DNA of 64,000 nt from an uncultured Actinomycetes bacterium (GTDB taxonomy: Bacteria; Actinomycetota; UBA4738; HRBIN12), in NCBI GenBank assembly GCA_963792215.1, contig CAWBVL010000007.1, forward strand, positions 855,710 through 919,709, given 5' to 3'. The position numbers were made by a program, and so were the translations under genes. A model generated the notes under the pieces. The model was given only the letters and a program-made list of their open reading frames with translations. It was not told where the DNA came from and did not search any database. How positions within the stretch are numbered: the stretch's first letter is position 1; every line of letters starts with the position of its first letter. Below are positions 6,407 to 53,971 of the stretch, piece after piece.

Positions 6407-6415
6407 GGCGCCGCG

Positions 6416-10211: not shown

Positions 10212-10251
10212 CGTACGGGTCGGGCGTGCTCGGCCGTAGCATCGGGGGCTG

Positions 10252-19062: not shown

Positions 19063-20178
19063 ATGGCAGCCGTCCTCGACGACGTCGCGGGTCAGGAGGA
19101 CGCGGTCGCATTCCTGCGGCGCGCGGCCGAGCGTCCGCATCACGCCTACGTGCTCGCCGGGCCGGAGGGCTCCGGCAAGTCGCTGGTCGCCCGGGCGTTC
19201 GTCGCCGCGCTGCTGTGCCACAACGGCGGATGCGGCGTGTGCCGCGACTGTCAACTCGCGCTCCGCGAGCATCATCCGAACGAGTTCGTCGTCGAGCCCG
19301 AGGGCCGCGACATCCACATCGACACGATCCGCGACGAGGTCTGGCACCACGCGTACCGCACCCCGCCGGAGCCGGGGCGCAAGGTCTTCATCATCCGCGA
19401 GGCGGACCGGCTCTCGCCCGCCGCGGCCGACACGCTGCTGAAGGTCCTCGAGGAGCCGCCGCTCGACACGGTGTTCCTCTTGTTGTCGGCGCGGGCCCAG
19501 GAGTTGCCCGACACGATCGCGAGCCGCTGTCACGTCGTCGTCTTCGCGGCGCTGCCCGAGTCCTTCGTGGTTCAGGAGCTCGAAGGCGAGGGCGTAGACC
19601 GGGTTCGGGCGCAGCTCGTGGCCCGGCTGTCCGGCGGCAACCTCGGACGGGCGCGCCGGATGGCGACCGACCCGGACGGCCTCGGGTTCCGAGACGTCGC
19701 TGCGGATGCGCTGGGCCGGGCGGCCCAAGGGCCGGGCGACGCGCTCGCCGCCGCCGCCGACGTGCTGGATGCAGCCGCGGCCTACAAGAAAGGACTCCGG
19801 GCGGAGCTCGACGAGGAACTGGCGCCGTTCCTCGACGAGAAGGGCCGGCCGGAAGAGGCGTACCGGGGAGCGATCCGGCGGATCGAGGTCCGGTTCGCCC
19901 GGCGCGAACGGCGAGCCGAACGCGACCAGGTCGACCGGATCCTGCTCGCGGCCTCGGCGCTGCTACGGGATCGCATCGCCGCGACGGTCCAGGCGCCGGA
20001 CGACCTGCGCCTCAACCTGGATCGCGAGGCTGTGCCCGCCGGGGAGGTCGGCGGCCTGGTCGCTTCTCTCGCCGCGGTCGAAGGCGCCCGGGCCGACCTG
20101 GCAGACGATGTGAACCGCAACGCGCGGCTCGTTGTCGAGCAAGCGTTCTTGGTCGTGGCCGGCGCGTCGGCAGGTTAG
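19063..20178 (+). CDS. holB: DNA polymerase III delta-prime subunit
   Basis: 'HAYVLAGPEGSGKSLVARAFVAALLC…CGVCRDC', 'KVFIIREADRLSPAAADTLLKVLEEPP'. Confidence 0.85.
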   Translation: MAAVLDDVAGQEDAVAFLRRAAERPHHAYVLAGPEGSGKSLVARAFVAALLCHNGGCGVCRDCQLALREHHPNEFVVEPEGRDIHIDTIRDEVWHHAYRTPPEPGRKVFIIREADRLSPAAADTLLKVLEEPPLDTVFLLLSARAQELPDTIASRCHVVVFAALPESFVVQELEGEGVDRVRAQLVARLSGGNLGRARRMATDPDGLGFRDVAADALGRAAQGPGDALAAAADVLDAAAAYKKGLRAELDEELAPFLDEKGRPEEAYRGAIRRIEVRFARRERRAERDQVDRILLAASALLRDRIAATVQAPDDLRLNLDREAVPAGEVGGLVASLAAVEGARADLADDVNRNARLVVEQAFLVVAGASAG

Positions 20179-21849: not shown

Positions 21850-22218
21850 ATGACCGTCCGCGTGTTGATCGTCGATGACCAGGAGCCGTTCCGGCAGGCC
21901 GCCCGCATGGTGGTCGAGTTGACGGACGGCTTCGAAGTCGTCGGCGAGGCCGAGACCGGCGAGGACTCGGTGACGATGGCGCAGGACCTGCAGCCCGACC
22001 TCGTGCTGATGGACGTGAACCTCCCGGGCATCAACGGGCTCGATGCGACGCGGCAGATCCTGGGCTCGTCGGACACGGTCGTGGTGCTGCTGCTGTCGAC
22101 CTACGAGGAAGCCGAGTACGCGCCGCGCGCCGCCGAGTGCGGCGCCTCCGCCTACATCCCCAAGTCGTCGTTCGGGCCGGACAGGCTCGAGGCCGCCTGG
22201 GAGACCGCCTCCGCCTGA
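21850..22218 (+). CDS. Stand-alone response-regulator receiver domain protein (NarL-like REC, no output domain)
   Basis: 'VRVLIVDDQEPFRQAARMVVE…DLVLMDVNLPGINGLDATRQIL…VVVLLLSTYEEAE'; the product ends after the receiver at 122 aa. Confidence 0.75.
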   Translation: MTVRVLIVDDQEPFRQAARMVVELTDGFEVVGEAETGEDSVTMAQDLQPDLVLMDVNLPGINGLDATRQILGSSDTVVVLLLSTYEEAEYAPRAAECGASAYIPKSSFGPDRLEAAWETASA

Positions 22219-26353: not shown

Positions 26354-28338
26354 CGGGCTGATCCCGCCATGCTCCGATCCGATGCCGGAACCGCGACCAT
26401 CACGGTGGTGCCGGATGCCCCGCTCGTGACGGCGAGCGAACCTTCGAGGGCGTCCACGCGATCCTGGATGATCTGCAGCCCCATGCCGCGCGGCGTCGTC
26501 CTCGCATCGAACCCCGGTCCTTCGTCGGTGATCTCGAAGGTCAAGACATCGCCGTCGAGCGACAGTCGCACCGTGCTCGGTGCGTTCGCGGCGTGACGCA
26601 GCACGTTCTGGATCGCCTGCAGACAGCAGAAGTAGACGCAGGCCTCGACGTCCGCATCGAACCTGCGGTTGGCGACCGAGGGATCGGCTTCGACCGTCGT
26701 CTGGGCGCCGACTTTGCGGATGTGTGCTTGCAGAGCGGGAACGATCCCTTGATCGGCCAGTAGCGGAGGGAACACCCCGCGCGCGAGGTCGCGAAGTCCT
26801 TCCAGGGTGTCGTTGGCGCGCTCGATCAGCGGGTCGAGCTCAGCCGGCTCGTTGACCGCGCGCACCGCGCGGCCGATCTCCAGGAGCTGCCGTTCGGGTC
26901 CCTCCTGGATGTCGCGCTGGAGCCCGCGACGCTGCGCGTCGCGGGCGGTCACCAAGCGCTCACGCGAGACCCGAAGGGCCGCCGCCTGCACGTCGAGCTC
27001 CCGCAACCGGACCCCGAGCTCTTCCGTGAGTCGGACGTTGTGCACGGCAAGGCCTGCCTGAGCGCCGAGGTCTTCGAGCAGCGCGCGTTCTGCCGGCGTG
27101 AGCGGGTCGTTCGCCGGCTTCGTCACGGTCAAGGTGGCGACGGGCTCGCCTTGGTGCACGATCGTCGTGGTCCACGGCTCCGCCGTTCGCCCGCCGGCGC
27201 TCGGTCCTTGCCAGCGCTCCACACGCTCGCCGCCGTCCGGAAGCGCGACGCGGATCGTCACTTCGGCGGCGCCCACGCCGGTGCCGGCCGCCTCGGCCAT
27301 CTGCGGAAGCACCTGTTCGGTCGAGACCGCGTCGGCGACCCGCTCTGAGAAGCCGGCCATCACCTCGTACGGGGTCGCGCGCTCGCCGAACACCAGCCGG
27401 TTGGCGAGCCGCCGTGCCCACACGCGCGCCGGCTGGAACAGCACGGCCGCGATCACGGTGGCAAGCAGGGACGAGGCGCCGGTGAGCGAACCGATCGCCG
27501 CGACCACTGCCACGTAGACCACCGTGATGAACGCCGCGAGCATTGCGAACACGAGCGTCTTCGACAAGACGAGGTCGATGTCGTACAGGCGGTAGCGCAG
27601 GATCGCGATGCCGGCCGCGATCGGGATCAGCGGGACCAAGAGCGCGAACGCCAGGTCGGGCCTCGGGAGTGCGAACACGCCGACCGCGACCCCCACGGCT
27701 GCGACCGCGCTCGCGGCGGTGAACCACTTCATCTGTGCGCGTTCGAGGCCGGCAGAGCGCCGGAACCGCACGACGAGCGAGACGGCGGACGCAAGGAAGA
27801 TCACCGCGTTCAGCAGACCGCCGAACGAGTTCAGCTCATCCGCGAACGATGGCGAGACGAGCTGCATCGGATGCGTCACCCCGGGGAAGTTCTGCGTGAA
27901 GTCCGACGTCACGCCGATGGCGGGCGCGATGAGGACGAACGCGATCGATCCGAGGGTGATCCACACGAGCGCGCGCCAGCGCGGCGTCAGCGGCGAGCCG
28001 GTCGGGAACAGTTGCAGGATCAGGTACACCGCTCCCGAGAGACCGATCGCCGATTGGAAGACCACTCCAACCCACCCCACGCCGGGCAGGTTCCGGGCGG
28101 TCGCTTGATGCGCGTACCCCAGGAGCGCGATGTCGACGGCGACCGACGCGCCGACGAACATCAGCAGCGGGCCGATCGCACGCCCGGCGCGCCGATACCA
28201 CAGCAGCGCGCCGACCGCGGTGGACGCGGCGACGAGCGGGATCCACATCAGGTCGCTCGGCACGTCTTCCAACATGGCACCAGCGACGAGTACCGCCAGC
28301 GACACGACCGGGATCGCCACGGCGAACGCGCGTCTCAT
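26350..28338 (-). CDS. Membrane sensor histidine kinase, HisKA_3 type, paralog K3
   Basis: 'FPTGSPLTPRWRA', 'RYRLYDIDLVLSKT', 'RLVFGERATPYEVM'. H-box diverged to 'RRGLQRDIQEGPERQLLEI' (Gln at the usual His position). ATGA overlap with K2. Confidence 0.75.
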   Translation of the reverse strand: MRRAFAVAIPVVSLAVLVAGAMLEDVPSDLMWIPLVAASTAVGALLWYRRAGRAIGPLLMFVGASVAVDIALLGYAHQATARNLPGVGWVGVVFQSAIGLSGAVYLILQLFPTGSPLTPRWRALVWITLGSIAFVLIAPAIGVTSDFTQNFPGVTHPMQLVSPSFADELNSFGGLLNAVIFLASAVSLVVRFRRSAGLERAQMKWFTAASAVAAVGVAVGVFALPRPDLAFALLVPLIPIAAGIAILRYRLYDIDLVLSKTLVFAMLAAFITVVYVAVVAAIGSLTGASSLLATVIAAVLFQPARVWARRLANRLVFGERATPYEVMAGFSERVADAVSTEQVLPQMAEAAGTGVGAAEVTIRVALPDGGERVERWQGPSAGGRTAEPWTTTIVHQGEPVATLTVTKPANDPLTPAERALLEDLGAQAGLAVHNVRLTEELGVRLRELDVQAAALRVSRERLVTARDAQRRGLQRDIQEGPERQLLEIGRAVRAVNEPAELDPLIERANDTLEGLRDLARGVFPPLLADQGIVPALQAHIRKVGAQTTVEADPSVANRRFDADVEACVYFCCLQAIQNVLRHAANAPSTVRLSLDGDVLTFEITDEGPGFDARTTPRGMGLQIIQDRVDALEGSLAVTSGASGTTVMVAVPASDRSMAGSAR

Positions 28339-30434
28339 GCGGTGCGCACCTCCGAGATGGGCACGCGCCCGCGCACGATCGTGCCCTTCCCGCGAGAGGA
28401 CTCGATCGTCGCGTCCCCGCCGAACACGGCGAGCCGGTCACGGATGCCGGCGAGGCCACTGCCTCCTCCGGTCGCGGCGGGATCGAACCCGACGCCGTCG
28501 TCGCGCACCGAGAAGCGCAGCGCTCCGTCGTCCGCCGCGATCACGATGGTGATCTCGTTCGCGTGCGCGTACTTGGCGGCGTTCTGCAACGCCTCGAGCG
28601 CGGCGAAGTACACGGCCGCTTCGATCTCGATGGGATAGCGGCCCGTCCCGTCCGCCTCCATCCGCACGGGCAGCCCGGAGCGCACGTACTGAGCCGCCAG
28701 CGCGGGGGCGATCCCTTGTTCCTCGAGCAACGGCGGGTAGATCCCGAGCGCAAGGGCCCGCAGCGTGTCGAGCGCGGCGTCGATCTCACCGCCGATCTCT
28801 TCGAGCATCGCGCGGCCGCGAGCAGGATCGGCGGCGATCGCCGTCTTGGCGAGCCGGAGCTTCACCGCAAGGGCGACCAGGTGCTGTTGCGCGCCGTCGT
28901 GGATGTTGCGCTCCAGCCGGCGGCGCTCCTCGTCCTGGGCGGTGACGATCCGCTGACGGGACGCGCGAAGCTCCGCGGCCTGGACCCCGATCTGATCGAG
29001 CCGCGCCTCCAGGTCGGCGGTCAGACCGGCGTTCGCGAGGATCAAGCCGGCCTGGTCGGCGAGTCGGTCGACCAACTCGGCCTCGCCGGGCGTGAGCGGT
29101 TCGCTCGCGCGCTTGTGGACCGCGATCGCGCCGAGCAGATCGCCGTGGTGGCGGACCGCGGCGACGCGATCGGCCTCGATCGGCATGACGTCATCGGCGA
29201 CCGGCAGGGATCGCCGTTCGTCCATATCGGGCCACGAGGCCGCCAACCGAAGCTCGTCGCCCACCCGGAGCCACACCTCCGCGCGGACGGCCGACGTTCC
29301 TTCCGCGATCACGCGCGCCACCCGCGGCAAGACGTCGTCACTCGCGTACGTTTCGCCGACGCGGTCGCCGAACCGAGCGAGCACCTCGTACGGCGTCGCA
29401 CGCGCACCGTACACGAGCCGGTTCGCCCAGCGGTTCGCACGGTCGCGCGCCGGCTGGAACGCGATCGCGACGACCGCGGTCGCGGCGATCCGGAGCGCCG
29501 GCGAATCGGCGAACGAACCGAGCCCGACGACGATCGCGACGTAGATCAGGCCGATGAACGCCGCGAGCACGCCGACCACGACGGTCTTGCGGATCACCAC
29601 GTCGATGTCGAAGAGGCGGTACTGCAGTATCGCGATGCCGATCGCGATCGGGATCAGCATCAACACGAACCCCTGGATGAAGTCCGCGATCCCGCCGGTG
29701 CCGTGGTTCAGCGGGAGCATGAACCACGCGAGGGCGACCGCGCCGGCGAACATCAACCACCGGATCTGCTCGCGTTCGACGCCTCGGGACCGGCGGTACC
29801 GGACCACGAGCGCCGCGACGCACGCCCCGACGGCGAGGAGCACGAAGAAGCTGACGAGGACGCGAGCGGCGTCGAACACCGGCGCGAACCGGTGCCACGT
29901 GTACGGGTTGATCGCCGGGTGGTTGTTGCCGTCGGTGTAGTCGTTCTGTTCGAACGCGAACGACATCGACCACAGCACCATGACGACCGCGACGCCCCAC
30001 GCCACGGGTCGCCACCGCCGGCTCGGGAGCCGTCCGTCGGGGAACAGCAGGAGTGGATACGTGAGGAGCAGGGTGAATATCGGGACCCACGCCCAGTTCC
30101 CGAGCCAGTTGAGGAACACCGCCCCCGGCGCGCCGGGGTGGTCGATCGTCGCCCACTGCACGTAGGTCCCGGCGAAGGAGAAGACCGCCGAGACGCCGAC
30201 CCACACCGCGAGGAAGATCCACCCGATCGGGTTCCTCGGTTCGCGCAACGCGATCGCGAGACCGACCACGCCATACGCGGTGAAGGCGAGACCCTCGGAG
30301 ATCGTCGACAACGGCGTCGGCAGATGATGGGCGAGCCCGAACGCGAGCGACCCGACGAACACCACGGTCGATGCCGTCCACAGCGACCAGGCCAATGCAC
30401 GCCGGGACGGCGCCGGGTGCGCGGCACCCGGCAT
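28335..30434 (-). CDS. Membrane sensor histidine kinase, HisKA_3 type, paralog K4
   Basis: 'RNPIGW', 'FPDGRLPSRRWRP', 'QYRLFDIDVVIRKT', 'RLVYGARATPYEVL', 'RRRLERNIHDGAQQHLVAL'. Start set at the Met of 'MPGAAHPAPSRRALAW' by paralog alignment; the ORF could extend to 30530. Confidence 0.75.
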   Translation of the reverse strand: MPGAAHPAPSRRALAWSLWTASTVVFVGSLAFGLAHHLPTPLSTISEGLAFTAYGVVGLAIALREPRNPIGWIFLAVWVGVSAVFSFAGTYVQWATIDHPGAPGAVFLNWLGNWAWVPIFTLLLTYPLLLFPDGRLPSRRWRPVAWGVAVVMVLWSMSFAFEQNDYTDGNNHPAINPYTWHRFAPVFDAARVLVSFFVLLAVGACVAALVVRYRRSRGVEREQIRWLMFAGAVALAWFMLPLNHGTGGIADFIQGFVLMLIPIAIGIAILQYRLFDIDVVIRKTVVVGVLAAFIGLIYVAIVVGLGSFADSPALRIAATAVVAIAFQPARDRANRWANRLVYGARATPYEVLARFGDRVGETYASDDVLPRVARVIAEGTSAVRAEVWLRVGDELRLAASWPDMDERRSLPVADDVMPIEADRVAAVRHHGDLLGAIAVHKRASEPLTPGEAELVDRLADQAGLILANAGLTADLEARLDQIGVQAAELRASRQRIVTAQDEERRRLERNIHDGAQQHLVALAVKLRLAKTAIAADPARGRAMLEEIGGEIDAALDTLRALALGIYPPLLEEQGIAPALAAQYVRSGLPVRMEADGTGRYPIEIEAAVYFAALEALQNAAKYAHANEITIVIAADDGALRFSVRDDGVGFDPAATGGGSGLAGIRDRLAVFGGDATIESSRGKGTIVRGRVPISEVRTA

Positions 30435-31047: not shown

Positions 31048-31731
31048 CTACGCGAGCTCGGTCTCCCGCAGGAACGCGAGCACGGCCATCACGCGACGGT
31101 GCACGTCGGGTTCTTCGGTGAGACCGAGCTTGTGGAACATCGAGTTGATGTGCTTCTCGACCGCGCGGTCGGTGAGGAACAAGGCCTTCGCGATCGACGC
31201 GTTGTTCATCCCTTGCGCCATGAGCGACAGCACCTCGCGTTCGCGGTCGGTGAGCTGCGCAAGCGGGGAGTGGGCGAGCCGGTCCTTCGCGGCGACGAGC
31301 GACTCGACGACCTTGGGATCGAGCACGCTGCCACCGCGGGAAACCTCGTAGAGGGCGCGGACGACTTCGTCGAGGTCGGCGACCCGCTCTTTCAACAGGT
31401 ACCCGAGCCCGGCGGCGCCGTCCTTCAGCAGGTCGTAGACATAGGCCTCGTCGGCGTATTGGGACAGCACGACGACGCCGGTGTCGGGGTGCTCGGCGCG
31501 GATCTGCCGCGCGGCGCGGATCCCTTCGTCCGTGCCGGTGGGCGGCATGCGGATGTCGGTGAGGACGGCGTCCGGGGTCTGGTCGGCGACCGCGGCGAGC
31601 AGCTCGTCGTAGGAGGCGGCGGTGCCCACGATGGCGACGTCCTCGGCCTCGTGCAGCAGCGCCGCGGTGCCCTCCCGCACAAGGTAGTTATCCTCGGCGA
31701 ACACGATGCGCAGCACGGCCGCATCGTACAC
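31048..31731 (-). CDS. NarL/FixJ-family response regulator (REC plus LuxR-type HTH)
   Basis: 'LRIVFAEDNYLVREG…DAVLTDIRMPP…VVVLSQYADEAYV', HTH 'LTDREREVLSLMAQGMNNASIAKALFLTDRAVEKHINSMFHKLG'. Confidence 0.85.
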   Translation of the reverse strand: MYDAAVLRIVFAEDNYLVREGTAALLHEAEDVAIVGTAASYDELLAAVADQTPDAVLTDIRMPPTGTDEGIRAARQIRAEHPDTGVVVLSQYADEAYVYDLLKDGAAGLGYLLKERVADLDEVVRALYEVSRGGSVLDPKVVESLVAAKDRLAHSPLAQLTDREREVLSLMAQGMNNASIAKALFLTDRAVEKHINSMFHKLGLTEEPDVHRRVMAVLAFLRETELA

Positions 31732-31748: not shown

Positions 31749-33029
31749 ATGACGATCCGAGTGGTGCTCGGCGAGGACAATGTGCTGGTCCGCGAGGGTG
31801 TCCGCGCACTGCTCGACTCCTACGAGGATGTCGAGGTCGTCGGCGTCGCGTCCGACGCGCCGACCTTGATGGCGGCCGCGCATGAGCATGTTCCGGACGT
31901 CGTCGTCACCGATATCAAGATGCCGCCGTCGTTCCAGCTCGAGGGGATCGACTGCGCGCACGCGATCCGCGAGCAGCACCCGGACACCGGTGTGGTCGTC
32001 CTGTCGGCGCACGACGACGCCGAGTACGCCGTCGCGCTGCTGGGCGAAGGGCACAGCGGCCTTGCCTACCTCTTGAAGGACCGGATCGCGCAGGGCGACG
32101 AGCTCGTCCGCGCGATCCACGAGGTGCATGAGGGCGGCAGCGTCGTCGATCCGACGATCGCCGAGCGGCTCACCGGGAGCCAGCACGCCGACGACCAAGA
32201 CCGCAAGGTGCTGGACATGATGGCCCAGGGCCTCGGCTATCAGGAGATGGCGGCCGCGCTCGGCACGACGCAGGAGGCGGTCGACCGCCGCGTCACGGAT
32301 CTGTTCCGTCGGATGGCCGGTGGCAGCGAGGCCGGCAACGTGGACGATCTGAAGCGGCTGCACGCCGCCGTGGTGCAAAGCTCAGCGTCGTTCGAGACGC
32401 TTCGCTCGTACGTGCCGCAACAGGTGGTCGACGGACTCGCGGCAGACGCGAGCCTCGCCGAGCAGCGCGAGGTTGAGGTGACGGTGTTGTTCAGCGACAT
32501 CCGCGGCTTCTCGACGTTGTCGGAACGGCTCGCGGCGCGCGAGATCGCCGATGTGATCGGGCGGCATCTGCAGGCGATGGCCGAGGTCGTCGCCTCCCAC
32601 GGCGGCACGATCGACAAGTTCCAGGGCGACGCGGTGATGGCGGTGTTCGGCGCGCCGGTGCCGATGGACGATCACGCGCGCTGCGCGGTCGCGTGCGCGC
32701 TCGAGATGCAGTCGCGTCAGCGCGAGCTCAACGCCGAGGGTTGGGGGATCGAGAAGGTCGAGCGCCTCGACGTCGGGATCGGCCTGAACACCGGCATCGT
32801 GATGGCGGGCGCGATCGGCGGTGGCGGCCGGCTCGAGTACACGGTGATCGGCGACGCGGTCAACGTCGCGCAGCGCTTGCAGTCCGAGGCCGCCGGCGGA
32901 GAGATCGTCGCCGCAGCGAGCACGGTCCAGGCATGCGCCGACATCGAGGTCGAGTCGATCGGGGCCCGATCGGTGAAAGGCCGGGAAGAGCCCGTCGAGG
33001 TCTTCCGGGTCCTCATCGCGGACCGATGA
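31749..33029 (+). CDS. Response regulator with REC plus LuxR-type HTH fused to a C-terminal class III nucleotidyl cyclase (CHD) domain
   Basis: REC 'IRVVLGEDNVLVREG…DVVVTDIKMPP…VVVLSAHDD'; HTH 'DRKVLDMMAQGLGYQEMAAALGTTQEAVDRRV'; cyclase 'VTVLFSDIRGFSTLSE', 'IDKFQGDAVMAVFGAP', 'IGLNTGIVMAGAIGG', 'YTVIGDAVNVAQRLQS'. Confidence 0.8.
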   Translation: MTIRVVLGEDNVLVREGVRALLDSYEDVEVVGVASDAPTLMAAAHEHVPDVVVTDIKMPPSFQLEGIDCAHAIREQHPDTGVVVLSAHDDAEYAVALLGEGHSGLAYLLKDRIAQGDELVRAIHEVHEGGSVVDPTIAERLTGSQHADDQDRKVLDMMAQGLGYQEMAAALGTTQEAVDRRVTDLFRRMAGGSEAGNVDDLKRLHAAVVQSSASFETLRSYVPQQVVDGLAADASLAEQREVEVTVLFSDIRGFSTLSERLAAREIADVIGRHLQAMAEVVASHGGTIDKFQGDAVMAVFGAPVPMDDHARCAVACALEMQSRQRELNAEGWGIEKVERLDVGIGLNTGIVMAGAIGGGGRLEYTVIGDAVNVAQRLQSEAAGGEIVAAASTVQACADIEVESIGARSVKGREEPVEVFRVLIADR

Positions 33030-35113
33030 CCATCTCCGACCGAGGCCTCCGCGTCCTGACGTGGGTGGTCCTCGGCGTGATGTTGCTGACCGCGGTCGTG
33101 AGCCTGCTGATGGACAGCGTCAGCGGCTACAAGACCGACTGGGGCTTCGCGGTGATCATCCTTGCGTTCCCGTTCACCGGGTTCGTCGTGCTCCAGAAGC
33201 GACCGCGGAACACCCTCGGCTGGCTGATGCTCGGCATGGGCTTCATCGTGGCGATGCCCTTCCAGGACTACGCCGAGTACGCGCTCGTGAAGGGCCTGCC
33301 CGGTGCGGGCGTCGGCCTGGCGATGTCCGAGTGGTCCTGGGTCCCGTTCATCGGGATCTCCGGGTTCCTGTTGATGTTGTTCCCCGACGGGCATCTGCCG
33401 ACGCCGCGATGGCGGTGGTTCGCCTGGACGTGCGGGATCGGTCTCGTGTCGCTCGCGGCTGTGATCGCGTTCGCGCCGGGGAACTTCGCCGACCTGGGCC
33501 ATCCGGAGATCACGAACCCGCTGGGGTTCCATCCGCTCGATGTGCTCGGCGGCTGGATCTACGTGGTGACGATCTTCGCGCCGGCCGCGGTCGTCGGAGG
33601 AGCGGTCGCGATCATCCGGCGTCTCCGGCGTTCGACCGACCAGATCGAACGCCAGCAGCTGAAGTGGCTCGCGTGGGCGGCGGGCATCATCGCGGCGACG
33701 TACGTGTTCGCGTTCATCCCGGAGCTGGCCCTGGGAACGAGCACGTCCAACTGGAACGACTGGATCGCGCGGATCGCGGTGGGGTCATTCATCCTGATCC
33801 CGATCACGATCGGCATCGCGATCTTGCGCTATCGCCTGTACGACATCGACCTGGTGATCCGTAAGACCGTGGTCTTCGCGGTGCTCGCGGGGTTCATCGC
33901 GGTCGTGTATGTCGCGATCGTCGCCGGGATCAGCGTGGTCGTCGGGAACCTGTCCAGCACCGTCGCGTCGGCCATCGCCGCGGCGGTGGTCGCGCTCGCG
34001 ATCCAACCGGTGCGCCGGTGGGGCCAGCGCACCGCCGACCGCATCGTGTACGGCAAGCGCGCGACGCCGTACGAGGTGCTCACCGAGTTCGGCGAGAACC
34101 TCGCCGAGACCTACGGAGCCGACGACGTGCTCGCGCGCCTCGCCCGCGTGCTCGGTGAAGGCGTCGGCGCGCAGCGTGCGCGTGTCTGGCTCGGCGCAGA
34201 CGGGACGCGGCGCGTCGTCGCGAGTTGGCCTGACGGTGCCCCCGCATCCGGCGGCGACGATCTCGTCGAACCCGTTCGGCACCAGGGCCAGGTGCTCGGG
34301 GCTCTGTCCGTCGCGATGCCGCCGAACGATCCGATCGATGAGCCGCGGACCAAGCTGGTCGACGGGCTCGCTGCGCAGGCCGGCCTGGTGCTCCGCAATG
34401 TCGGCCTCCTCGAGGATCTGCGTGAGTCGCGGCGACGCTTGGTCGCCGCACAAGACCTCGAGCGGCGCAAGCTCGAGCGGAACATCCACGACGGCGCGCA
34501 GCAGCAGCTCGTCGCGCTGACCGTGAAGCTTCGATTGGCGCGTCAGGTCCTCGTGAAGGACCCGTCGCGCGTCGACGGCATGCTCGACGAGCTGGCCGGC
34601 GAGACGCAGCAGGCGCTCGAGGATCTCCGCGACCTGGCGCGCGGCATCTATCCACCGTTGCTGGCGGACCAGGGGCTCGGGGCGGCGCTGGAGGCCCAGG
34701 CGCGCCGGTCGGCGGTGCCGGTGACCGTCGAGTCCGACGCGATCGGCCGGTATGCACCGGAGGTGGAGGCAGCTGTCTACTTCTCGTGCCTCGAGGCCTT
34801 GCAGAACATCGCGAAGTACGCCGGCGCCACCGCCGCGACGATCCAGCTCACGGGTGCGCCGGGCCGCCTCGAGTTCCGGATCAACGACGACGGGGTCGGG
34901 TTCGACGCCGGCGCGACCTCGTACGGAACTGGGCTGCAGGGGATCGCGGACCGCCTGGCGGCGCTCGGCGGGGCGCTCGCCGTCGCCTCGACGCCCGGCA
35001 GCGGGACCGCGATCACCGGGTCCTTGCCCGCCCAGGAGGCCGATGCGAAGGTGAGCCCCGACGGTGCGCCGCCCGCCGTACCGGCGGCGCCGATGGGCGC
35101 TGCGCGCCCGTGA
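33026..35113 (+). CDS. Membrane sensor histidine kinase, HisKA_3 type, paralog K5
   Basis: ATGA overlap with the cyclase-RR stop. 'RNTLGW', 'FPDGHLPTPRWRW', 'RYRLYDIDLVIRKT', 'RIVYGKRATPYEVL', 'RRKLERNIHDGAQQQLVAL', 'DDGVGFD…GTGLQGIADRL'. Confidence 0.8.
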   Translation: MTISDRGLRVLTWVVLGVMLLTAVVSLLMDSVSGYKTDWGFAVIILAFPFTGFVVLQKRPRNTLGWLMLGMGFIVAMPFQDYAEYALVKGLPGAGVGLAMSEWSWVPFIGISGFLLMLFPDGHLPTPRWRWFAWTCGIGLVSLAAVIAFAPGNFADLGHPEITNPLGFHPLDVLGGWIYVVTIFAPAAVVGGAVAIIRRLRRSTDQIERQQLKWLAWAAGIIAATYVFAFIPELALGTSTSNWNDWIARIAVGSFILIPITIGIAILRYRLYDIDLVIRKTVVFAVLAGFIAVVYVAIVAGISVVVGNLSSTVASAIAAAVVALAIQPVRRWGQRTADRIVYGKRATPYEVLTEFGENLAETYGADDVLARLARVLGEGVGAQRARVWLGADGTRRVVASWPDGAPASGGDDLVEPVRHQGQVLGALSVAMPPNDPIDEPRTKLVDGLAAQAGLVLRNVGLLEDLRESRRRLVAAQDLERRKLERNIHDGAQQQLVALTVKLRLARQVLVKDPSRVDGMLDELAGETQQALEDLRDLARGIYPPLLADQGLGAALEAQARRSAVPVTVESDAIGRYAPEVEAAVYFSCLEALQNIAKYAGATAATIQLTGAPGRLEFRINDDGVGFDAGATSYGTGLQGIADRLAALGGALAVASTPGSGTAITGSLPAQEADAKVSPDGAPPAVPAAPMGAARP

Positions 35114-47340: not shown

Positions 47341-48576
47341 ATGGTGGCCAAGGTGTGCCTGCGCTGCGACTGGTCGGGCACGACGACGTCGTCCGCGTGC
47401 CCACGATGCGGCGCGCCGCTGTACGCGCGCGGGGCCCCAGCTCCGAAAGACGCCGCGCCGTCTGACCACCCGGGATCCGACGACTCGACGCGCCGACCCT
47501 GGCGCGCGTGGATGGCAACGGCCCTCGTCGTCGCGATCGCCGCGGCTGCGTTCGTGACGATCCAGTTCCTCACGCCGTCCCAGCCGCCGCCGCACGCGCT
47601 CGCTTTGACCGGTTTCCAGGGCTATCTCGTCTATGCGGCGCCCGACGAAGGGCAGCAGCGACTGTGGATCTGGGATCTCGCGACCGGCACCGTCCAGCCG
47701 GGGCCGGAGATCCACGCCGCGCCGAGCGCCATCGTGTCGACGTACGCGGTCGAGGACACGTGGATCGGGCTTACGGTGCCGACCGGCATCGGCACGTCGG
47801 CGGCCTCGGTGTTGCGCAGTGCGGACGCCGGCACCGATCCGGTGGAGCTCGGGGAGGGTCAGTTCGTCGCCTGGCCCGACGGGGGCGCGTTCGTCAGCAT
47901 CCTGCGTTCCGACCGGGTGGCGGGGTGCCGCGAACATCTGCAGGTGACCACGGCGTCTCTGGTCACTCGGGTTTCCTTGCGGTCCCTCAACCGGGATGTG
48001 TGCGGGCACGCGATCGGACTCTTGCGCGACGGGACGTTCACGTACGTAACGAGCCGCGGGGGCGCGCTCTCGATCGACCGCGTGAGCGGACATCGGCTGA
48101 CGACGGTCCTGGAGGGCTACGTCCCGCTCGGTGTCTCGGCCAACGGCGACTTCCTCGTCCGAACCCCCGACGGTCGTGCCGGGATGTACTACCCCAGCGC
48201 GCGGTCGCAGGCGGCCACGATGATCTCGCTGCACCACCAGCCGCTCCGCGCGACGCGGCTGCTCGCGTGGAGCACCGACGGCAACATCGCCTACGTCCTC
48301 GGGTCGGTCGGCGGTGTGGCCGGCGTCTACGCGGTCACGGTAGGCCCGAGACCCGAGCCGGGCACGCCGACGCTGATTTTCGGCACGCACAGCCGCCATG
48401 TGTCCGCGTCGATCACATCGACGAACGATCTGTTCTTGCTGACGGGCGGGCTCGTGCGCTTCGTGCACGACGGCTCGTTGGAGAACGCGCTGCCACCGCC
48501 GACGGGCGCACCGGTGCCGAACGGGCCGGTGCTCTGGGTGCTCTCGTTGCCATACTCGCCGTCGGTGACGCCATGA
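47341..48576 (+). CDS. Hypothetical membrane-anchored protein (N-terminal zinc-ribbon, one TM, extracytoplasmic beta-rich domain)
   Basis: 'CLRCDWSGTTTSSACPRCGAPLY' zinc ribbon, then TM 'MATALVVAIAAAAFVTIQFL', then a ~330-aa domain with beta-strand-like periodicity. Confidence 0.5.
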   Translation: MVAKVCLRCDWSGTTTSSACPRCGAPLYARGAPAPKDAAPSDHPGSDDSTRRPWRAWMATALVVAIAAAAFVTIQFLTPSQPPPHALALTGFQGYLVYAAPDEGQQRLWIWDLATGTVQPGPEIHAAPSAIVSTYAVEDTWIGLTVPTGIGTSAASVLRSADAGTDPVELGEGQFVAWPDGGAFVSILRSDRVAGCREHLQVTTASLVTRVSLRSLNRDVCGHAIGLLRDGTFTYVTSRGGALSIDRVSGHRLTTVLEGYVPLGVSANGDFLVRTPDGRAGMYYPSARSQAATMISLHHQPLRATRLLAWSTDGNIAYVLGSVGGVAGVYAVTVGPRPEPGTPTLIFGTHSRHVSASITSTNDLFLLTGGLVRFVHDGSLENALPPPTGAPVPNGPVLWVLSLPYSPSVTP

Positions 48577-49424
48577 AGATCGCGATCGTCGGTGCGGGCA
48601 CGGTGGGAACCGCCGCCGCGGTCCGATGGCGCGACGCCGGTTACACGATCACGGCTGTCTCTGGACGAGCTGCGACATCCGATCGCGCCGCGCGATGGCT
48701 GCCCGGGGTTGAGGTGGTTCCCTTGGCGAACGCGCCGACCGGCGCGGACGTCGTCGTGCTCGCGGTGCCGGACGACACGCTGCCCGAGATCGTGGCGTCG
48801 CTCGTGGGACGGTTCGACCCCGGCTCCTCCGCGCTCCACCTCTCCGGCGCACTCGGGCTCGACGCGCTCCGGCCGTTGGAAGCTGCAGGTATCCGAACCC
48901 TCGCCGTGCATCCGCTCCAGACGTTCGCCGAGGTCGGGGGAGCCATCGAGGCGCTTCCGGGCGCTGCGATCGCCGTCACGGCGCGCAACGACGAGGGAAC
49001 CGCGCTCGGAGACCAGCTGGCGCGCGACCTCGGCGGCCGCCCGTTCCGGCTCGCCGACGAGGATCGCCCGCTGTATCACGCGGCCGCGGTGTTCGCGTCG
49101 AACTACCTGGTCGCCGTGTCGGGGGCGGCGCTCGACCTCTTCACGGCCGCAGGCGTGCCGGATGCCGCCGACGCGATGCACCCCCTCCAGGCGGCGACGC
49201 TCGCCAACGTCCACCGGTTGGGACCGCAGCAGGCGCTGACCGGGCCTGCGGTCCGCGGCGACTCCGGCACGGTCGCACGGAACCTCGACGCGGTGGCCGC
49301 CGCGTCGCCCGCGCTCGTGCCGGCGTACATCGCGTTGTGCCGAGCCGCGATGGACGTCGCGGGCTCCCGGCTGCCCGACGATCGCCGTCGAGCCGTCGAG
49401 GAGGTGCTCGCCCGGTGGAGGTGA
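48573..49424 (+). CDS. Rossmann-fold NAD(P)-binding protein (DUF2520-like) of the pantothenate cluster
   Basis: 'MKIAIVGAGTVGTAAAVRW'. ATGA overlap upstream and TGATG overlap with panC downstream. Same position as the conserved gene upstream of panC in mycobacteria. Confidence 0.6.
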   Translation: MKIAIVGAGTVGTAAAVRWRDAGYTITAVSGRAATSDRAARWLPGVEVVPLANAPTGADVVVLAVPDDTLPEIVASLVGRFDPGSSALHLSGALGLDALRPLEAAGIRTLAVHPLQTFAEVGGAIEALPGAAIAVTARNDEGTALGDQLARDLGGRPFRLADEDRPLYHAAAVFASNYLVAVSGAALDLFTAAGVPDAADAMHPLQAATLANVHRLGPQQALTGPAVRGDSGTVARNLDAVAAASPALVPAYIALCRAAMDVAGSRLPDDRRRAVEEVLARWR

Positions 49425-50275
49425 TGCGTGAGGCTTCGGCGTTCCGCGACGCCACCGACGCCGCGCGCGACGGCGGCGCATCGATCGGGTTCGTCCCGAC
49501 GATGGGTGCGATGCACGAAGGCCATCGATCCCTCCTTCGCGCCGCGCGCGCGCAGACCGATCGTGTCGCGGTCTCGATCTTCGTGAACCCGATGCAGTTC
49601 GAGGACCCCGACGACCTCGCGCGCTATCCGCGCGACGAGGGGAAGGACCTTGCGATGTGCGAGGCGGAGGGAACGGATCTCGTGTGGGCGCCGCCGGTCG
49701 AGGAGGTGTATCCGCTCGGCGTGGAGCTCGCACATCCCGATGCGGGCGAGGTCGGCGACCTGTACGAAGGCGCCGCGCGGCCGGGACACTTCGCGGGCGT
49801 CTTGCTCGTCGTGCACCGGCTGTTCGACGTCGCCGGTCCGTGCACCGCGTTCTTCGGCGAGAAGGACGCCCAACAGCTCTTCTTGGTTCGGCGGATGACG
49901 GATCAGGAACCCGCGCTGGGGGTGACGATCGTCGGCTGTCCGACGCAGCGGGAGCCGGACGGACTTGCGCGCTCTTCGCGGAACGCGGCGCTTGCACCCG
50001 CGGAACGCGAGCAAGCGGCCTGCCTGTTCCTCGCGCTTACGGAGGCGGCGGAACGCGCGCGGTCCGGCGAACGCGACGCGAACGCGCTCGTCGCGGTGAT
50101 GGCCCGCGAGATCGGCGCCACGCCGCTCGCGCGCCTGGACTACGCCGCCGTCGTCGACGAGGCGACGTTCGAGCCGATCGGGGTGCTCGACCGTCCCGCG
50201 CGCGCGATCGTCGCCGCGCGGTTCCCGAGCGCGCGGCTGATCGACAACGTGGCGCTCCCGGAGCCCGCTCCGTGA
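49424..50275 (+). CDS. panC: Pantoate–beta-alanine ligase
   Basis: 'GFVPTMGAMHEGHRSLL', 'VSIFVNPMQF', 'FGEKDAQQ'. Confidence 0.85.
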   Translation: MREASAFRDATDAARDGGASIGFVPTMGAMHEGHRSLLRAARAQTDRVAVSIFVNPMQFEDPDDLARYPRDEGKDLAMCEAEGTDLVWAPPVEEVYPLGVELAHPDAGEVGDLYEGAARPGHFAGVLLVVHRLFDVAGPCTAFFGEKDAQQLFLVRRMTDQEPALGVTIVGCPTQREPDGLARSSRNAALAPAEREQAACLFLALTEAAERARSGERDANALVAVMAREIGATPLARLDYAAVVDEATFEPIGVLDRPARAIVAARFPSARLIDNVALPEPAP

Positions 50276-50733
50276 GCGCCGCGCCGCCGGATCGCGCAAC
50301 GATCGCCGCCGCGGTGATGGACGACCTCGTCACGATCACCCTCGATACCGACGACGACGCGGTCGGTGTGGCGCGGATCGTGGCGACCCGGGCGGGCGTC
50401 TTCGCCGGAGCACCGATCGTCCGCGAGATCATGGGCCGCGTCGCCGTCCGGACGCGGGCGCTCGTCGCCGAGGGTGAGGCCGTCGACCTCGGCATCGCCG
50501 TTCTCGAACTCGGCGGGCCGCTCGCCGCGATCCGTGGCGCCGCGCCGCTCGCCCTGACCTGGGTGACCCGTTGCGGCGCCGTGGCGAGCGGCGCGACCCC
50601 GCCCGAGGCGGGCAACCCCATCGATGCGTACGCCGCGCGGTTGTCGGCGCGGGCCGCGGTCGGCCACGATGAGCCGTCCTTCCGTCTGGAGATCGAGCCA
50701 GACGAAGGATCCGAAGAGAGGACAGAGGGGTAA
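50272..50733 (+). CDS. Hypothetical protein resembling only the N-terminal domain of quinolinate phosphoribosyltransferase (NadC)
   Basis: 'TRAGVFAGAPIVREIMGRV…VRTRALVAEGEAVDLGIAVLELGGPLAAIRGAAPLALTWV' parallels the NadC N-domain 'RENGVFCGKRWVEEVF…[32 protein letters not shown]'. No TIM-barrel catalytic half follows. GTGA overlap with panC; sits where panD is expected. Confidence 0.4.
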   Translation: MSAAPPDRATIAAAVMDDLVTITLDTDDDAVGVARIVATRAGVFAGAPIVREIMGRVAVRTRALVAEGEAVDLGIAVLELGGPLAAIRGAAPLALTWVTRCGAVASGATPPEAGNPIDAYAARLSARAAVGHDEPSFRLEIEPDEGSEERTEG

Positions 50734-50735
50734 CC

Positions 50736-51512
50736 GTGCTGCTCACTGCCGACGTCGGGAACACCGAGATCGTGCTCGGCGTGTTCGACGGCGCGGAGCT
50801 CCGCCACACCTGGCGCTCTTCGACCCATTCCGAGCGCACGTCCGACGAGCTCGCGCTGTTGCTCGCTGGGTTCCTCGAGCACCGCGATCTCGACCTGCGC
50901 AAGGACATCACCGGCATGTGCATCGCGAGCGTCGTGCCCGATGTGACCGGCCAGTTCCGCGAGATGGCGGCCGCCTACCTCACCCACGAGCCCGTGATCG
51001 TCGGTCCCGGTATGAAGACCGGCGTGTCGGTCGTGACCGACAACCCGCGCGAGGTCGGCGCCGACCGGGTGGTCAACACGCTCGCCGCGTTCACGGCGTT
51101 CGGCGGCCCTGCGATCGTCGTCGACTTCGGCACGAGCACGAACTTCGACGTCGTCTCCGAGAGCGGCGAGTTCCTCGGGGGCGTGATCGCGCCCGGGCTG
51201 CAGATCAGCGCCTCCGCGCTCGTCGGGCGCACCGCTCGCCTCACCCGCGTCGACCTGCAGCCGCCGCGGTCGCCGGTCGGCCGATCCACGGTCGAGGCGA
51301 TCCAATCCGGGCTGATCTACGGCACGGCCGGTGAGGTCGATGGCATCGTCGAGCGGATCCGCGACGAGCTCGGCGCGCCCGACGCAACGGTGGTCGCGAC
51401 CGGCGGCCTCGCGCCCGTCGTGATCCCGCACTGCCGCACCGTCGACCGGTACGAGCCCTGGCTCACCCTCGAGGGGCTCCGGCTCGTCTACGAGAAGAAC
51501 GTCGATGCCTGA
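50736..51512 (+). CDS. coaX: Type III pantothenate kinase
   Basis: 'LLTADVGNTEIVLGVF', 'IVVDFGTSTNFDVV', 'TGGLA'. Confidence 0.85.
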   Translation: MLLTADVGNTEIVLGVFDGAELRHTWRSSTHSERTSDELALLLAGFLEHRDLDLRKDITGMCIASVVPDVTGQFREMAAAYLTHEPVIVGPGMKTGVSVVTDNPREVGADRVVNTLAAFTAFGGPAIVVDFGTSTNFDVVSESGEFLGGVIAPGLQISASALVGRTARLTRVDLQPPRSPVGRSTVEAIQSGLIYGTAGEVDGIVERIRDELGAPDATVVATGGLAPVVIPHCRTVDRYEPWLTLEGLRLVYEKNVDA

Positions 51513-53067
51513 GGAGCCGACCGGACGCCCAACGGGGCGGGAAGCCGAGGTGCTCGCGGCGCGCCGCGAGAGCTTGGCCCGCCTGGGCAACCGGCGTGCG
51601 TTCGCGATCACGCTCGCGGACGTGCTCGACGTGTCCGAGCCCACACGCTCCGGCGTCGTGCGCGCTGCGCATCCTGATCTCGCCGCCGACACGCAGACCG
51701 ACGACGTCGTCACCGTCGCGGGTCGTGTCGTGCTGAAGCGCGATATGGGCAAGCTCGTGTTCGCGACGCTCCGCGATCCGGACGGCGACCTCCAGGTCGT
51801 CGTCAACGCCGCGAACCTGCCCGCGGACGACTTCGCGCTGTTCCAAGAGGTGGACCTCGGGGACATCATCGGCGCGACCGGCACCGTCGGCACCACGCGC
51901 AAAGGCGAGCTCAGCGTGTTCGTCACGCGGTGGGCGATGCTCACGAAGGCGCTACGGCCGCTCCCGGAGAAGTGGGCGGGCCTGCAGGATCCGGATCTGC
52001 AACAGCGACGTCGTTACCTCCACCTGATCACCGACGAGGAGCCGCGCAAGCTGTTCCTCGCGCGCGCCGCCGTGCTCAAGACGATCCGCCGGGTGCTCGA
52101 CGAGCGCGGCTTCGTCGAGTTCGAAGGCCCGATGCTGCAGACGATCGCCGGCGGCGCGAACGCGCGCCCGTTCACGACGCATCACTTCGCCCTCGACATG
52201 CCGATGAAGCTCCGCATCTCGCTCGAGCTCTATCTGAAGCGGATGCTCGTCGGCGGTGTCGACCGTGTGTTCGAGCTCGGACGCAACTTCCGCAACGAAG
52301 GCATCGACCGCGACCACAACCCCGAGTTCACGATGCTCGAGGCATACCAGGCCTACGGCGACTACCACTCGATGATGGAGCTGTCGGAGACGTTGGTGCG
52401 CGAATCCTGCCGCACCGTCAACCCGATCCTCGGGCGGCCCGCGGACGACCTCGTGATCCCTGCGCGCGGTCAGATGGTCGACCTGGCCGAGCCGTTCCAG
52501 CGGATCACCGTGCTCGGCTCCGTCTCGGAGGCCGTCGGCGAGGAGGTCACGCTCGACCATCCCGACCTCCGCGGCGTCGCCGCGCGTAACGACGTTCCCG
52601 TCGAACCGGCGTGGGGACCCGGCAAGATCGTGCAGGAGCTGTTCGAGAAGCTCGTCGAGGACACGATCGTGCAGCCGACGTTCGTGTGCGATTTCCCGCG
52701 CGAGGTCTCGCCGCTCGCGCGGCCGCACCGCGAGAACCCCGGGCTCACCGAGCACTTCGACCTGGTCGCCGCGGGCATCGAGCTCGTCACCGCGTTCAGC
52801 GAGCTGACCGACCCCGACGAGCAACGCGCCAAGTTCGAGCTCCAGCAGCAGATGAAGGAGGTGCTCGGCGACGAGACGCACCCGTACGACGAGGAGTTCC
52901 TGCGGGCGCTGGAGCAGGGGATGCCGCCCGCCGGCGGCCTCGGCATGGGCATCGATCGACTCCTGTTGCTGCTCACCGACGCGCAGAGCCTGCGCGACGT
53001 GATCATGTTCCCGGCGCAGCGACCGGAAGGACGGCCGGACGGAGCGTCGGAGGGACAGCCCGAGTAG
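51505..53067 (+). CDS. lysS: Lysyl-tRNA synthetase (class II)
   Basis: Class II motifs 'RNFRNEGIDRDHNPEFTMLEAYQAY', 'GGLGMGIDRLLLLLT'. Overlaps coaX stop. Confidence 0.9.
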   Translation: MPEEPTGRPTGREAEVLAARRESLARLGNRRAFAITLADVLDVSEPTRSGVVRAAHPDLAADTQTDDVVTVAGRVVLKRDMGKLVFATLRDPDGDLQVVVNAANLPADDFALFQEVDLGDIIGATGTVGTTRKGELSVFVTRWAMLTKALRPLPEKWAGLQDPDLQQRRRYLHLITDEEPRKLFLARAAVLKTIRRVLDERGFVEFEGPMLQTIAGGANARPFTTHHFALDMPMKLRISLELYLKRMLVGGVDRVFELGRNFRNEGIDRDHNPEFTMLEAYQAYGDYHSMMELSETLVRESCRTVNPILGRPADDLVIPARGQMVDLAEPFQRITVLGSVSEAVGEEVTLDHPDLRGVAARNDVPVEPAWGPGKIVQELFEKLVEDTIVQPTFVCDFPREVSPLARPHRENPGLTEHFDLVAAGIELVTAFSELTDPDEQRAKFELQQQMKEVLGDETHPYDEEFLRALEQGMPPAGGLGMGIDRLLLLLTDAQSLRDVIMFPAQRPEGRPDGASEGQPE

Positions 53068-53146: not shown

Positions 53147-53569
53147 ATGGACGAGAGCGAGATCGCCAAGCTGTTGAGCTCCGTGCCTCTGTTCGCCCAG
53201 ATCGAGCAGCACGACCTCATGCTCGTCGCCGCGCGCATGAAAGAGGTGCACTTCGAGCCCGGGCGCGTGATCGCCAAGCAGGGCGACTCGGGTGTCGGGT
53301 TCCATCTGATCGTCGAGGGCCAGGCCGAGGTGTCGGGCGAGGGCGTGCCCAGGCACTCGATGGGTGCCGGCGGCTACTTCGGCGAGATCGGTCTGATCGA
53401 CGGCGGCGTGCGCTCCGCGACGGTCAGCGCGGCGACCGATCTGACGACGCTGGCGCTCGTGTCGTGGGACTTCCAGCCGCTGTTGGACAATCCCGTGTTC
53501 GCGAAGGGACTGCTGATGGGGTTGTGCCAACTCGTGCGGGACTATCGGGAGTCCGCGGCCGGCAACTAG
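53147..53569 (+). CDS. Stand-alone cyclic-nucleotide-binding (cNMP/CAP effector) domain protein
   Basis: 'VIAKQGDSGVGFHLIVEGQAEVS…GAGGYFGEIGLIDGGVRSATVSAATDLTTLAL' canonical cNMP-binding fold; no HTH follows. RBS GAGGGGA upstream. Confidence 0.7.
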   Translation: MDESEIAKLLSSVPLFAQIEQHDLMLVAARMKEVHFEPGRVIAKQGDSGVGFHLIVEGQAEVSGEGVPRHSMGAGGYFGEIGLIDGGVRSATVSAATDLTTLALVSWDFQPLLDNPVFAKGLLMGLCQLVRDYRESAAGN

Positions 53570-53971
53570 CTACGCCTCGTCCGGCTCCGCGGCTTCGTGC
53601 AGCACGATCACGAGATCGTGCAATCCGGTGCCCTTCGCGAGGAATCCCGACGCACCCGCCTCGCGCGCCTCGCGCTCCACGCCCTCGTCGGCGTGCGCGG
53701 TCAAGATCACGACCGGAAGATCGGGCCGCCGCGCATGGATCCGCTTCATCGCGTCGATCCCCGACAGATCGGGCATCGACAGATCCATGATGATGATGTC
53801 GGGGTGGAGTTCTTCCGCCTCGGTGCACGCATCGACACCCCCCCCGGCCTCGCCGGCGACCTCGATGTCGGCGACGAGGTTGAGCGCGGACGACAGCGCC
53901 TTGCGGAACGCAGGGTGGTCGTCGACGACGAGCACGCGCACCGGTGTTTCCTCTCCGTACGTGAGGTCCAC
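53570..53971 (-). CDS. Stand-alone response-regulator receiver domain protein
   Basis: 'VRVLVVDDHPAFRKAL…DIIIMDLSMPDLSGIDAMKRI…VVILTAHADEG'; ends after REC. Confidence 0.7.
   Translation of the reverse strand: MDLTYGEETPVRVLVVDDHPAFRKALSSALNLVADIEVAGEAGGGVDACTEAEELHPDIIIMDLSMPDLSGIDAMKRIHARRPDLPVVILTAHADEGVEREAREAGASGFLAKGTGLHDLVIVLHEAAEPDEA

Follow-up and report, generated by a model that had tools for sequence, protein, structure and literature searches.

The stretch of DNA analysed here, referred to as the window, comprises 64,000 nucleotides (nt) from an uncultured Actinomycetes bacterium (assembly GCA_963792215.1, contig CAWBVL010000007.1, positions 855,710 to 919,709 of the forward strand). 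Between panC and coaX it carries an open reading frame (ORF) whose product corresponds to the N-terminal lobe (N-lobe) of NadC, the quinolinate phosphoribosyltransferase (QPRTase), and which we call mini-nadC. The gene order around it is tilS, hpt, folE, folP, abhydrolase, folB, folK, a 411-amino-acid (aa) unknown, DUF2520, panC, mini-nadC, coaX, lysS, clpC, radA, carD and ispD, and in Pfam searches the flanking ORFs were recognized as PanC (Pantoate_ligase, E = 1e-86) and type III pantothenate kinase (E = 3e-69). The GTG start of mini-nadC shares three bases with the TGA stop of panC. At its other end the ORF finishes with GAG GGG, followed by the stop codon, 2 nt and the coaX start; its last two sense codons, for Glu and Gly, thus also serve as the Shine-Dalgarno sequence of coaX. 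The GC content of the three codon positions, 0.77/0.57/0.87, follows the coding pattern of panC, coaX and lysS along the entire ORF. These junctions are shared by the related loci described below: the 4-nt (A/G)TGA overlap is present in all those carrying the panC junction, L047 excepted (L and P numbers are our identifiers for loci and proteins), ccGGAGcc lies 5' of the overlap in most of them, and the junction GAGGGG TAA/TAG nn GTG/ATG to coaX is kept in most loci. The coupling to panC through GTGA, proposed in the original prediction for this locus, is thus conserved, and from the layout of the junctions, translation of mini-nadC is predicted to be coupled to that of panC on one side and of coaX on the other. 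The coordinates of all features are collected in Table 1.

Table 1. Positions in the window of mini-nadC, its two partner genes and the features discussed in the text (pN and pS, proportions of nonsynonymous and synonymous differences)
Feature	Position	Strand	Description or basis
mini-nadC ORF	50272..50733	+	153 codons plus TAA (50731-50733); NadC N-lobe, alpha/beta barrel deleted
panC (pantoate-beta-alanine ligase), upstream partner	49415..50275	+	Pfam, NCBIfam; longest ORF from 49337, homologue alignments begin at 49415
coaX (type III pantothenate kinase), downstream partner	50736..51512	+	Pfam, NCBIfam
panC/mini-nadC coupling junction	50260..50275	+	GGAG 50260-50263 within panC 3' end, then GTGA 50272-50275 (mini-nadC GTG start 50272, panC TGA stop 50273-50275)
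mini-nadC/coaX junction	50725..50738	+	GAG GGG, TAA 50731-50733, 2-nt gap, coaX GTG 50736
N-lobe core, residues 1-108	50272..50595	+	Secondary structure of AlphaFold2 model; aligns to NadC ~1-120; pooled pN/pS 0.36
Codon of Pro92	50545..50547	+	Position of NadC N-lobe active-site Arg ('ER' of ERxALN); HMMER alignment to 1x1o, 1qap
Helix 116-127 (NPIDAYAARLSA)	50617..50652	+	Remnant of NadC first barrel helix (PGLRxLEKYAxxxGG); BLASTP and hhalign global alignment agree
C-terminal beta-strand 136-141 (SFRLEI)	50677..50694	+	Probably NadC beta10 completing the N-lobe sheet; DSSP strand in AlphaFold2 model
Zone of suppressed synonymous change	50497..50780	+	mini-nadC codons ~76-153 and first ~15 coaX codons
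13-bp GC-rich hairpin within the ORF	arms 50541-50553 (CGCGCCGCTCGCC) and 50583-50595 (GGCGAGCGGCGCG)	+	29-nt loop

The relationship to NadC was apparent from both sequence and fold. The Pfam family PF02749 (QRPTase_N) matched residues 22-87 of mini-NadC with E = 6.3e-7 and 30.0 bits, above its curated gathering cut-off of 27 bits, and was the only Pfam match at E ≤ 1, with neither aspartate decarboxylase nor PF01729 (QRPTase_C) among the hits. The match to the nadC equivalog TIGR00078 was confined to model positions 21-103 of 269; its 29.2 bits, compared to a cut-off of 198.4 bits, leave mini-NadC outside NadC/QPRTase (EC 2.4.2.19). No QRPTase_C barrel follows the ORF, because coaX begins 2 nt past its stop. 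In the comparison of the family profile with solved QPRTases, 1x1o was found at E = 3e-10, together with 1qap, 4i9a and 2jbm, in each case over only their N-terminal ~80 residues. An AlphaFold2 model computed from the family alignment (predicted local distance difference test, pLDDT, 88.7; predicted template-modelling score, pTM, 0.84) showed, in order, helix 8-19, strand 31-40, helix 47-55, strands 60-63 and 76-83, helices 84-106 and 116-127 and strand 136-141. With this model, the best 48 Foldseek matches in the PDB were all QPRTases, at query-normalised template-modelling (TM) scores of 0.6-0.69, and human NAPRT (4yub) was a weak match at rank 50. The QPRT N-lobe is formed by strands beta1-beta3 and the C-terminal strand beta10, packed on helices of which the longest is the last; in the human enzyme it comprises residues 1-112 and 279-288, the barrel being made up of residues 113-278 (PMC3633916, PMC4726147). 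Compared by the order of strands and helices, the element list of the model equals this published N-lobe.

All significant sequence and fold matches of mini-NadC are therefore to NadC, and the original view of the ORF as an N-terminal-domain-only NadC relative, unlike PanD and followed by no C-terminal barrel, was borne out. With NadC, a type II phosphoribosyltransferase (PRTase; 1x1o, 1qpr, 4kwv, 2jbm) whose homologous N-lobe is an open-faced alpha/beta sandwich, mini-NadC shares the three N-terminal strands, the long helix and probably the C-terminal strand. Unlike NadC, it is without the entire alpha/beta barrel (~150 residues; net loss ~130) and all catalytic residues carried by the barrel. 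ModD and the nicotinate and nicotinamide PRTases have the type II two-domain design in common with NadC; they are far more distant from mini-NadC than NadC is, and their barrel is always present. We found no description of a stand-alone N-lobe for ModD or the nicotinate-type PRTases, and the NCBIfam and Pfam output for the ORF, which includes no direct comparison with ModD, contained no ModD model.

Catalytic residues have been lost from both the N-lobe and the barrel. In the M. tuberculosis and human structures, the Arg of the ERxALN motif in the N-lobe reaches into the active site of the partner subunit. At this position 119 of the 126 minis carry Pro, among them the protein of the window with Ala91-Pro92; the dipeptide is AP in 112/126 minis compared to ER in 27/27 of the full-length NadCs encoded in the same slot, and a few deep-branching minis retain ER, RR or ES. 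The barrel motifs TRKT and KDNH are present in all 27 of these NadCs and in none of the 126 minis. In pig QPRTase, quinolinate and phosphoribosyl pyrophosphate are bound by Arg138, Lys139, His160, Arg161, Lys171, Glu201 and Asp222 (PMC3633916). Since the barrel motifs are lost and the N-lobe Arg is replaced by Pro, we regard mini-NadC as a catalytically dead cap domain which, judged by its residues, cannot perform the quinolinate phosphoribosyltransferase reaction.

The source of this cap domain can be traced from the genes occupying the same slot in other lineages. Among full-length NadCs, P0150 (281 aa, MGH2738958.1) resembles the family profile most closely; it is encoded in a locus (L006) with the order folP-abhydrolase-PNPOx-folB-folK-DUF2520-panC-nadC-coaX. 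About 26 more clusters are 60-86% identical to P0150, three loci of which were viewed: the genes for P0315 and P0317 also lie in the panC-coaX slot and are followed by lysS (L052, L053/L054), and the nadC of P0312 is located elsewhere in its genome. The gene neighbourhood of mini-nadC matches the slot-nadC loci gene for gene. The NadCs of this clade of uncultured Actinomycetota (P0150, P0295-P0320) are also the closest relatives of the minis by sequence, with 42-54% identity between P0150 and deep-branching minis over the N-lobe. Both groups have the N-terminal 'LDRxxIL' helix and the arginines R56, R60 and R62, and both share DUF2520-panC upstream and coaX-lysS downstream, so that NadC of the sister lineages and mini-nadC have the coaX-adjacent slot and the coupled operon layout in common. 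Unlike the minis, the slot NadCs are 278-304 aa long, contain QRPTase_C and have ER, TRKT and KDNH intact.

In a neighbour-joining tree of 116 N-lobe columns, the minis were monophyletic in 297/300 bootstraps and grouped within the slot-NadC clade in 270/300, while the full-length clade was monophyletic in 0/300. Monophyly of the minis nested in the slot-NadC clade points to a single deletion. Traces of the deletion are visible in pairwise alignments. BLASTP of the deep-branching minis P0135 (E = 5e-31) and P0141 (similar) with P0150 gave one high-scoring segment pair through the N-lobe, which passes over 13-15 residues, the DTRKT strand among them, before it resumes through PLEQYAAEVG / VLEKYAAAIG. 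As the alignment runs through the LEKYA helix, helix 116-127 is the remnant of the first barrel helix. For the last 20 columns of the family (AVGHDGPSFRLExE), the best and only hhalign match was to the NadC C-terminus, residues 264-283 (S.GAITHaAPWLDFSLev), with P = 0.02-0.03 for the slot clade and 0.19 for mixed NadCs, values that are weak alone. The match is colinear with NadC, and the other strands of the model all belong to the N-lobe. When the C-terminal 46 columns were compared with mixed NadCs, hhalign offered an internal barrel strand instead (E = 0.058); the comparison with the closest clade favours the NadC C-terminus. Strand 136-141 is thus probably, though not provably, the NadC C-terminal strand. 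We conclude that mini-nadC is the positional descendant of nadC after an in-frame deletion of the barrel.

This descent also bears on the nature of the slot. The original prediction had regarded it as the slot of panD and the ORF as a possible marker of panD having been relocated or replaced. The nearest lineages with a full gene at this place hold full-length nadC there (L006, L052, L053/L054), and with nadC in the identical slot the ORF replaces nadC, not panD, and is uninformative on the source of beta-alanine. The order panC-panD-coaX is that of mycobacteria (Rv3602c-Rv3600c in M. tuberculosis) and is not the rule in the mini-nadC clade. Searches by tblastn with PanD of E. coli and M. tuberculosis (query sequences entered by hand) returned no PanD-like sequence in the 64-kb window (best E = 0.19) and, in the related loci, nothing at E ≤ 1e-3. 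No NAD or beta-alanine synthesis genes were found in the window. More distant NadC neighbourhoods read DUF2520-panC-nadB-nadC-coaX (L055/L056) and nadC-birA-coaX-fusA (L057/L058). Taken with the slot loci, they show that nadC adjoining coaX is a widespread arrangement, and they suggest that cofactor genes for NAD, biotin and CoA have long been linked around coaX. The loci seen form a series from panC-nadB-nadC-coaX through panC-nadC-coaX to panC-mini-coaX; if it reflects history, the de novo NAD genes at this conserved locus would have eroded stepwise.

Mini-nadC is not confined to the window. A word search of 5.8 billion proteins gave 121 homologues with 43-100% identity, mostly labelled QRPTase_N only, whose lengths are 141-163 aa, fragments and one 179-aa call aside. 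A profile search, which covered exhaustively 1.84 billion cluster representatives, separated two tiers: ~25 clusters at the 50% identity level with E < 1e-17, covering the full 143-position profile, and full-length NadCs, mostly with E ≥ 1e-9 (best 2e-12) and aligned mainly to profile positions ~24-110. In total the family comprises ~125 protein clusters of 141-169 aa. All named members come from metagenome-assembled genomes of uncultured Actinomycetota, and the group to which the family belongs is from soil. Scanning metagenomes brought in 43 further loci, giving ~50 independent loci from many samples; the order (DUF2520)-panC-mini-coaX-(lysS) was found in every locus with enough flank, and the ORF is intact in nearly all. 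Three of the ~50 loci deviate, L023 by an in-frame stop, L046 by truncation to 125 aa and L044 by loss of the stop codon, so that the frame reads into coaX; these may be sequencing errors or real decay. The proteins P0142 and P0147 resemble fusions but seem to result from frameshifts in error-prone assemblies, and were set aside. In the sources, members are named "hypothetical" or, wrongly, "nicotinate-nucleotide pyrophosphorylase" (JGI; P0014, P0018, P0025 and others). The latter label would falsely credit genomes with a step of de novo NAD synthesis and mislead pathway reconstructions.

Mini-nadC is the fastest-evolving gene of the cluster. Compared to L003, the identity is 43% for mini-NadC, 63% for PanC, 78% for CoaX and 68% for LysS, and the median pairwise ratio of nonsynonymous to synonymous substitution rates (dN/dS, NG86) is 0.48 for mini-nadC, 0.31 for DUF2520, 0.19 for panC, 0.11 for coaX and 0.14 for lysS. 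Pooled over 15 roughly independent sister pairs, pN/pS was 0.41 (binomial p = 3e-35) and decreased to 0.36 for residues 1-108; in the 5' half of the gene pS is ~0.39 and pN ~0.12-0.20. Mini-nadC is under purifying selection. The designation as an orphan in the original prediction does not hold for a family of this size with conserved synteny and purifying selection.

A second kind of constraint acts on the nucleotides of the 3' half. Along mini-nadC, pS is ~0.40 for codons 20-70, close to the 0.41 of panC, falls to 0.22 for codons 81-100 and to 0.11-0.14 for codons 121-150, remains at 0.20 over the first 20 codons of coaX and then returns to ~0.33. At conserved residues the share of the commonest codon is 0.80-0.91 for codons 76-150, compared to 0.62-0.74 for codons 1-75 and 0.73-0.78 in panC, coaX and lysS. 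The zone includes the GC-rich hairpin, a perfect inverted repeat of 13 bp, the arms of which encode A91-P92-L93-A94 and A105-S106-G107-A108 and are nucleotide-invariant across the main clade. For 33 distinct sequences, pairing holds in 93% of cells, and 7/13 pairs have changes on both sides, with some compensatory changes in divergent members; none of 500 shuffles reached the observed value, and slid controls gave 27-52%. The P0135 lineage has a different stem at the equivalent codons: those for R-V-A and A-T pair over 7 bp (CGTGGCC/GGCCACG), and three pairs are flipped compared to the main clade.

We rejected overlapping coding as an explanation for the frozen synonymous sites: given the GC content, none of the alternative frames is open to an unusual extent, and CoaX has its canonical DxGNT motif at the N-terminus. 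A small hairpin occluding the Shine-Dalgarno sequence at the coaX start was likewise discarded, its stability being like that of shuffled sequence (z near 0). A wider conserved RNA fold was not supported (structure conservation index just 0.1-0.3), Rfam 15 covariance models gave only chance-level matches over 49800-51300 (E > 1), and searches for a sigma-70-type promoter and an intrinsic terminator found neither. The obvious candidate behind the frozen sites is an element acting in cis on the expression of coaX; together with the hairpin the sites present a testable cis element 5' of an essential gene.

Taken together, we consider it reasonably probable that mini-nadC serves two purposes, as a folded cap with a non-catalytic role and, in its 3' half, as host of cis elements. 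The ancestor was a nadC gene already in place between panC and coaX in this actinobacterial lineage. A single ancient in-frame deletion would have removed the catalytic alpha/beta barrel, and the discontinuous N-lobe, made of the N-terminal ~110 residues and the C-terminal strand, would thereby have become a contiguous protein of ~145 residues. In the resulting operon the panC stop overlaps the start of the mini gene, the last codons of which supply the ribosome-binding site of coaX. The cap would have been kept for a non-catalytic role, for example in binding or regulation, and the Shine-Dalgarno sequence, the hairpin and the frozen synonymous sites of the 3' half may act on coaX expression. 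Two observations argue for a role of the protein itself: the 5' half, although free of constraint at the nucleotide level, has been kept in all loci and its pN is well below pS, and the retained pieces exactly complete the N-lobe fold.

Several points weigh against this reading. The pN/pS of 0.41, the highest in the operon, fits weak constraint or the avoidance of misfolding in an obligatorily translated spacer. The covariation of the hairpin derives from few divergent sequences or events, and the stem was defined on those same sequences. The monophyly of the minis could be inflated by long-branch effects of their faster evolution.

The strongest competitor, which we rate as possible but rather unlikely, is that the ORF is a translated spacer only. 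To reach coaX (and lysS), ribosomes would have to translate the stretch between the panC stop and the coaX start, the 3' half would host the Shine-Dalgarno sequence and the hairpin, and the protein would be functionless, its amino acid constraint reflecting that an obligatory polypeptide must fold and stay harmless. The conservation of the panC overlap and of the GAGGGG-TAA-nn-GTG junction in nearly all loci would follow from such a spacer, as would the synonymous sites frozen over the 3' half into coaX, the conserved hairpin, the high pN/pS and the loss of the active-site Arg. What a spacer leaves unaccounted for is the part without nucleotide-level constraint: codons 1-75 are present in every locus with pN well below pS. 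Even among members with as little as 28% identity, lengths stay at 141-169 aa although bacterial genomes are usually biased towards deletion, the elements kept are exactly those completing the N-lobe, and a direct panC-coaX junction could couple translation without any spacer.

More specific assignments are less probable still. Within the dual reading of folded cap and cis elements, the pantothenate/CoA operon may have recruited the cap as a small protein with a regulatory or adaptor function and, independently, the 3' half may be an undescribed cis-regulatory or processing element for coaX-lysS; we put this forward as a tentative and, on present evidence, unlikely proposal. If true, a cap binding PanC, CoaX or a pyridine nucleotide could link NAD status to CoA synthesis. 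Of the three options in the original prediction, the domain remnant is thus correct as to origin, the new regulatory subunit is retained as a candidate in this form, and the panD marker is not supported. A split enzyme, in which the N-lobe would act in trans on a barrel-only QPRTase or another type II PRTase and restore the cap between subunits, seems very unlikely. The few deep-branching minis with ER or RR at the Arg position are compatible with it, but this position is Pro in nearly all members, the window included. Moreover, no barrel sequence is present in the window or in the fetched flanks of any mini-bearing locus, and no barrel-only family surfaced, none having been specifically searched for. 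Least credible of all is that mini-nadC is a pseudogene fragment in decay, or an ORF due to chance or mis-assembly in GC-rich DNA, for although long spurious ORFs are common in this window of 70% GC (for example a 635-aa antisense ORF at 50037-51944) and mini-nadC evolves faster than its neighbours, the frame has coding-type GC at the third codon position and stays intact in the same form in the independent loci from many samples with only the three departures, its pN/pS is 0.41 at the significance given above, and the family alignment alone yields a confident fold; random drift or a pseudogene is excluded.

Mini-NadC can be compared with pseudoenzymes and other derivatives of domain loss that retain a non-catalytic domain, in which chemistry is likewise lost from a catalytic scaffold and selection retained. 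Unlike point-inactivated pseudoenzymes, it has had its complete catalytic domain excised and a discontinuous domain made contiguous. We found no literature on stand-alone QRPTase_N proteins or on the nadC/panC/coaX neighbourhood. The fold and its ancestry are known, but not this architecture, in which removal of the catalytic domain has joined the parts of a discontinuous domain and the product has since been conserved. Mini-nadC offers a clean natural case in which the leftover has been selected over deep divergence, with a bearing on domain autonomy, the origin of pseudoenzymes and annotation.

Other genes of the locus deserve brief mention. Directly 5' of panC and overlapping it lies a gene for a DUF2520/Rossmann-like protein (48573-49424, + strand), found at the same place in all related loci. 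DUF2520 proteins include ketopantoate reductase of the PanG type, and this gene may be the operon's candidate ketopantoate reductase. In the interval between folK and DUF2520, the 411-aa ORF (47341-48576, + strand) has no Pfam match and carries an N-terminal CxxC...CxxC zinc-ribbon-like motif; L003 has an unannotated gene of 335 aa in this slot. The interval between lysS and clpC (53147-53941), presumably the position of lsr2 in mycobacteria, contains genes for a stand-alone cyclic nucleotide monophosphate-binding protein (+ strand) and a receiver-only response regulator (- strand), the latter also kept in L003 and L005.

Farther away in the window, four tandem paralogues of a histidine kinase of ~660-710 aa, with a fifth nearby, are encoded at 22152-30395 (- strand) and 33026-35113 (+ strand). 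Three of the tandem kinases have HisKA_3 and HATPase_c, one has HATPase_c only, and the kinases flank a Usp protein, a LuxR-type response regulator (31048-31731) and a fusion of response regulator and adenylate cyclase (31761-33029). Between topA (14454-16985) and the gene for the DNA polymerase III delta' subunit (19063-20178), an ORF of 679 aa (16992-19031, + strand) combines an N-terminal MFS transporter domain with a C-terminal thymidylate kinase; this may be a genuine but unusual fusion, or the ORF call may have joined two separate genes. Finally, positions 1-12588 contain three pairs of histidine kinase and OmpR-type regulator, two of the kinases with DUF4118 (KdpD-like), as well as two TrkA-type proteins and two unusually long AA_permease_2 proteins (826 and 778 aa), and look like a cluster for potassium or osmotic regulation.

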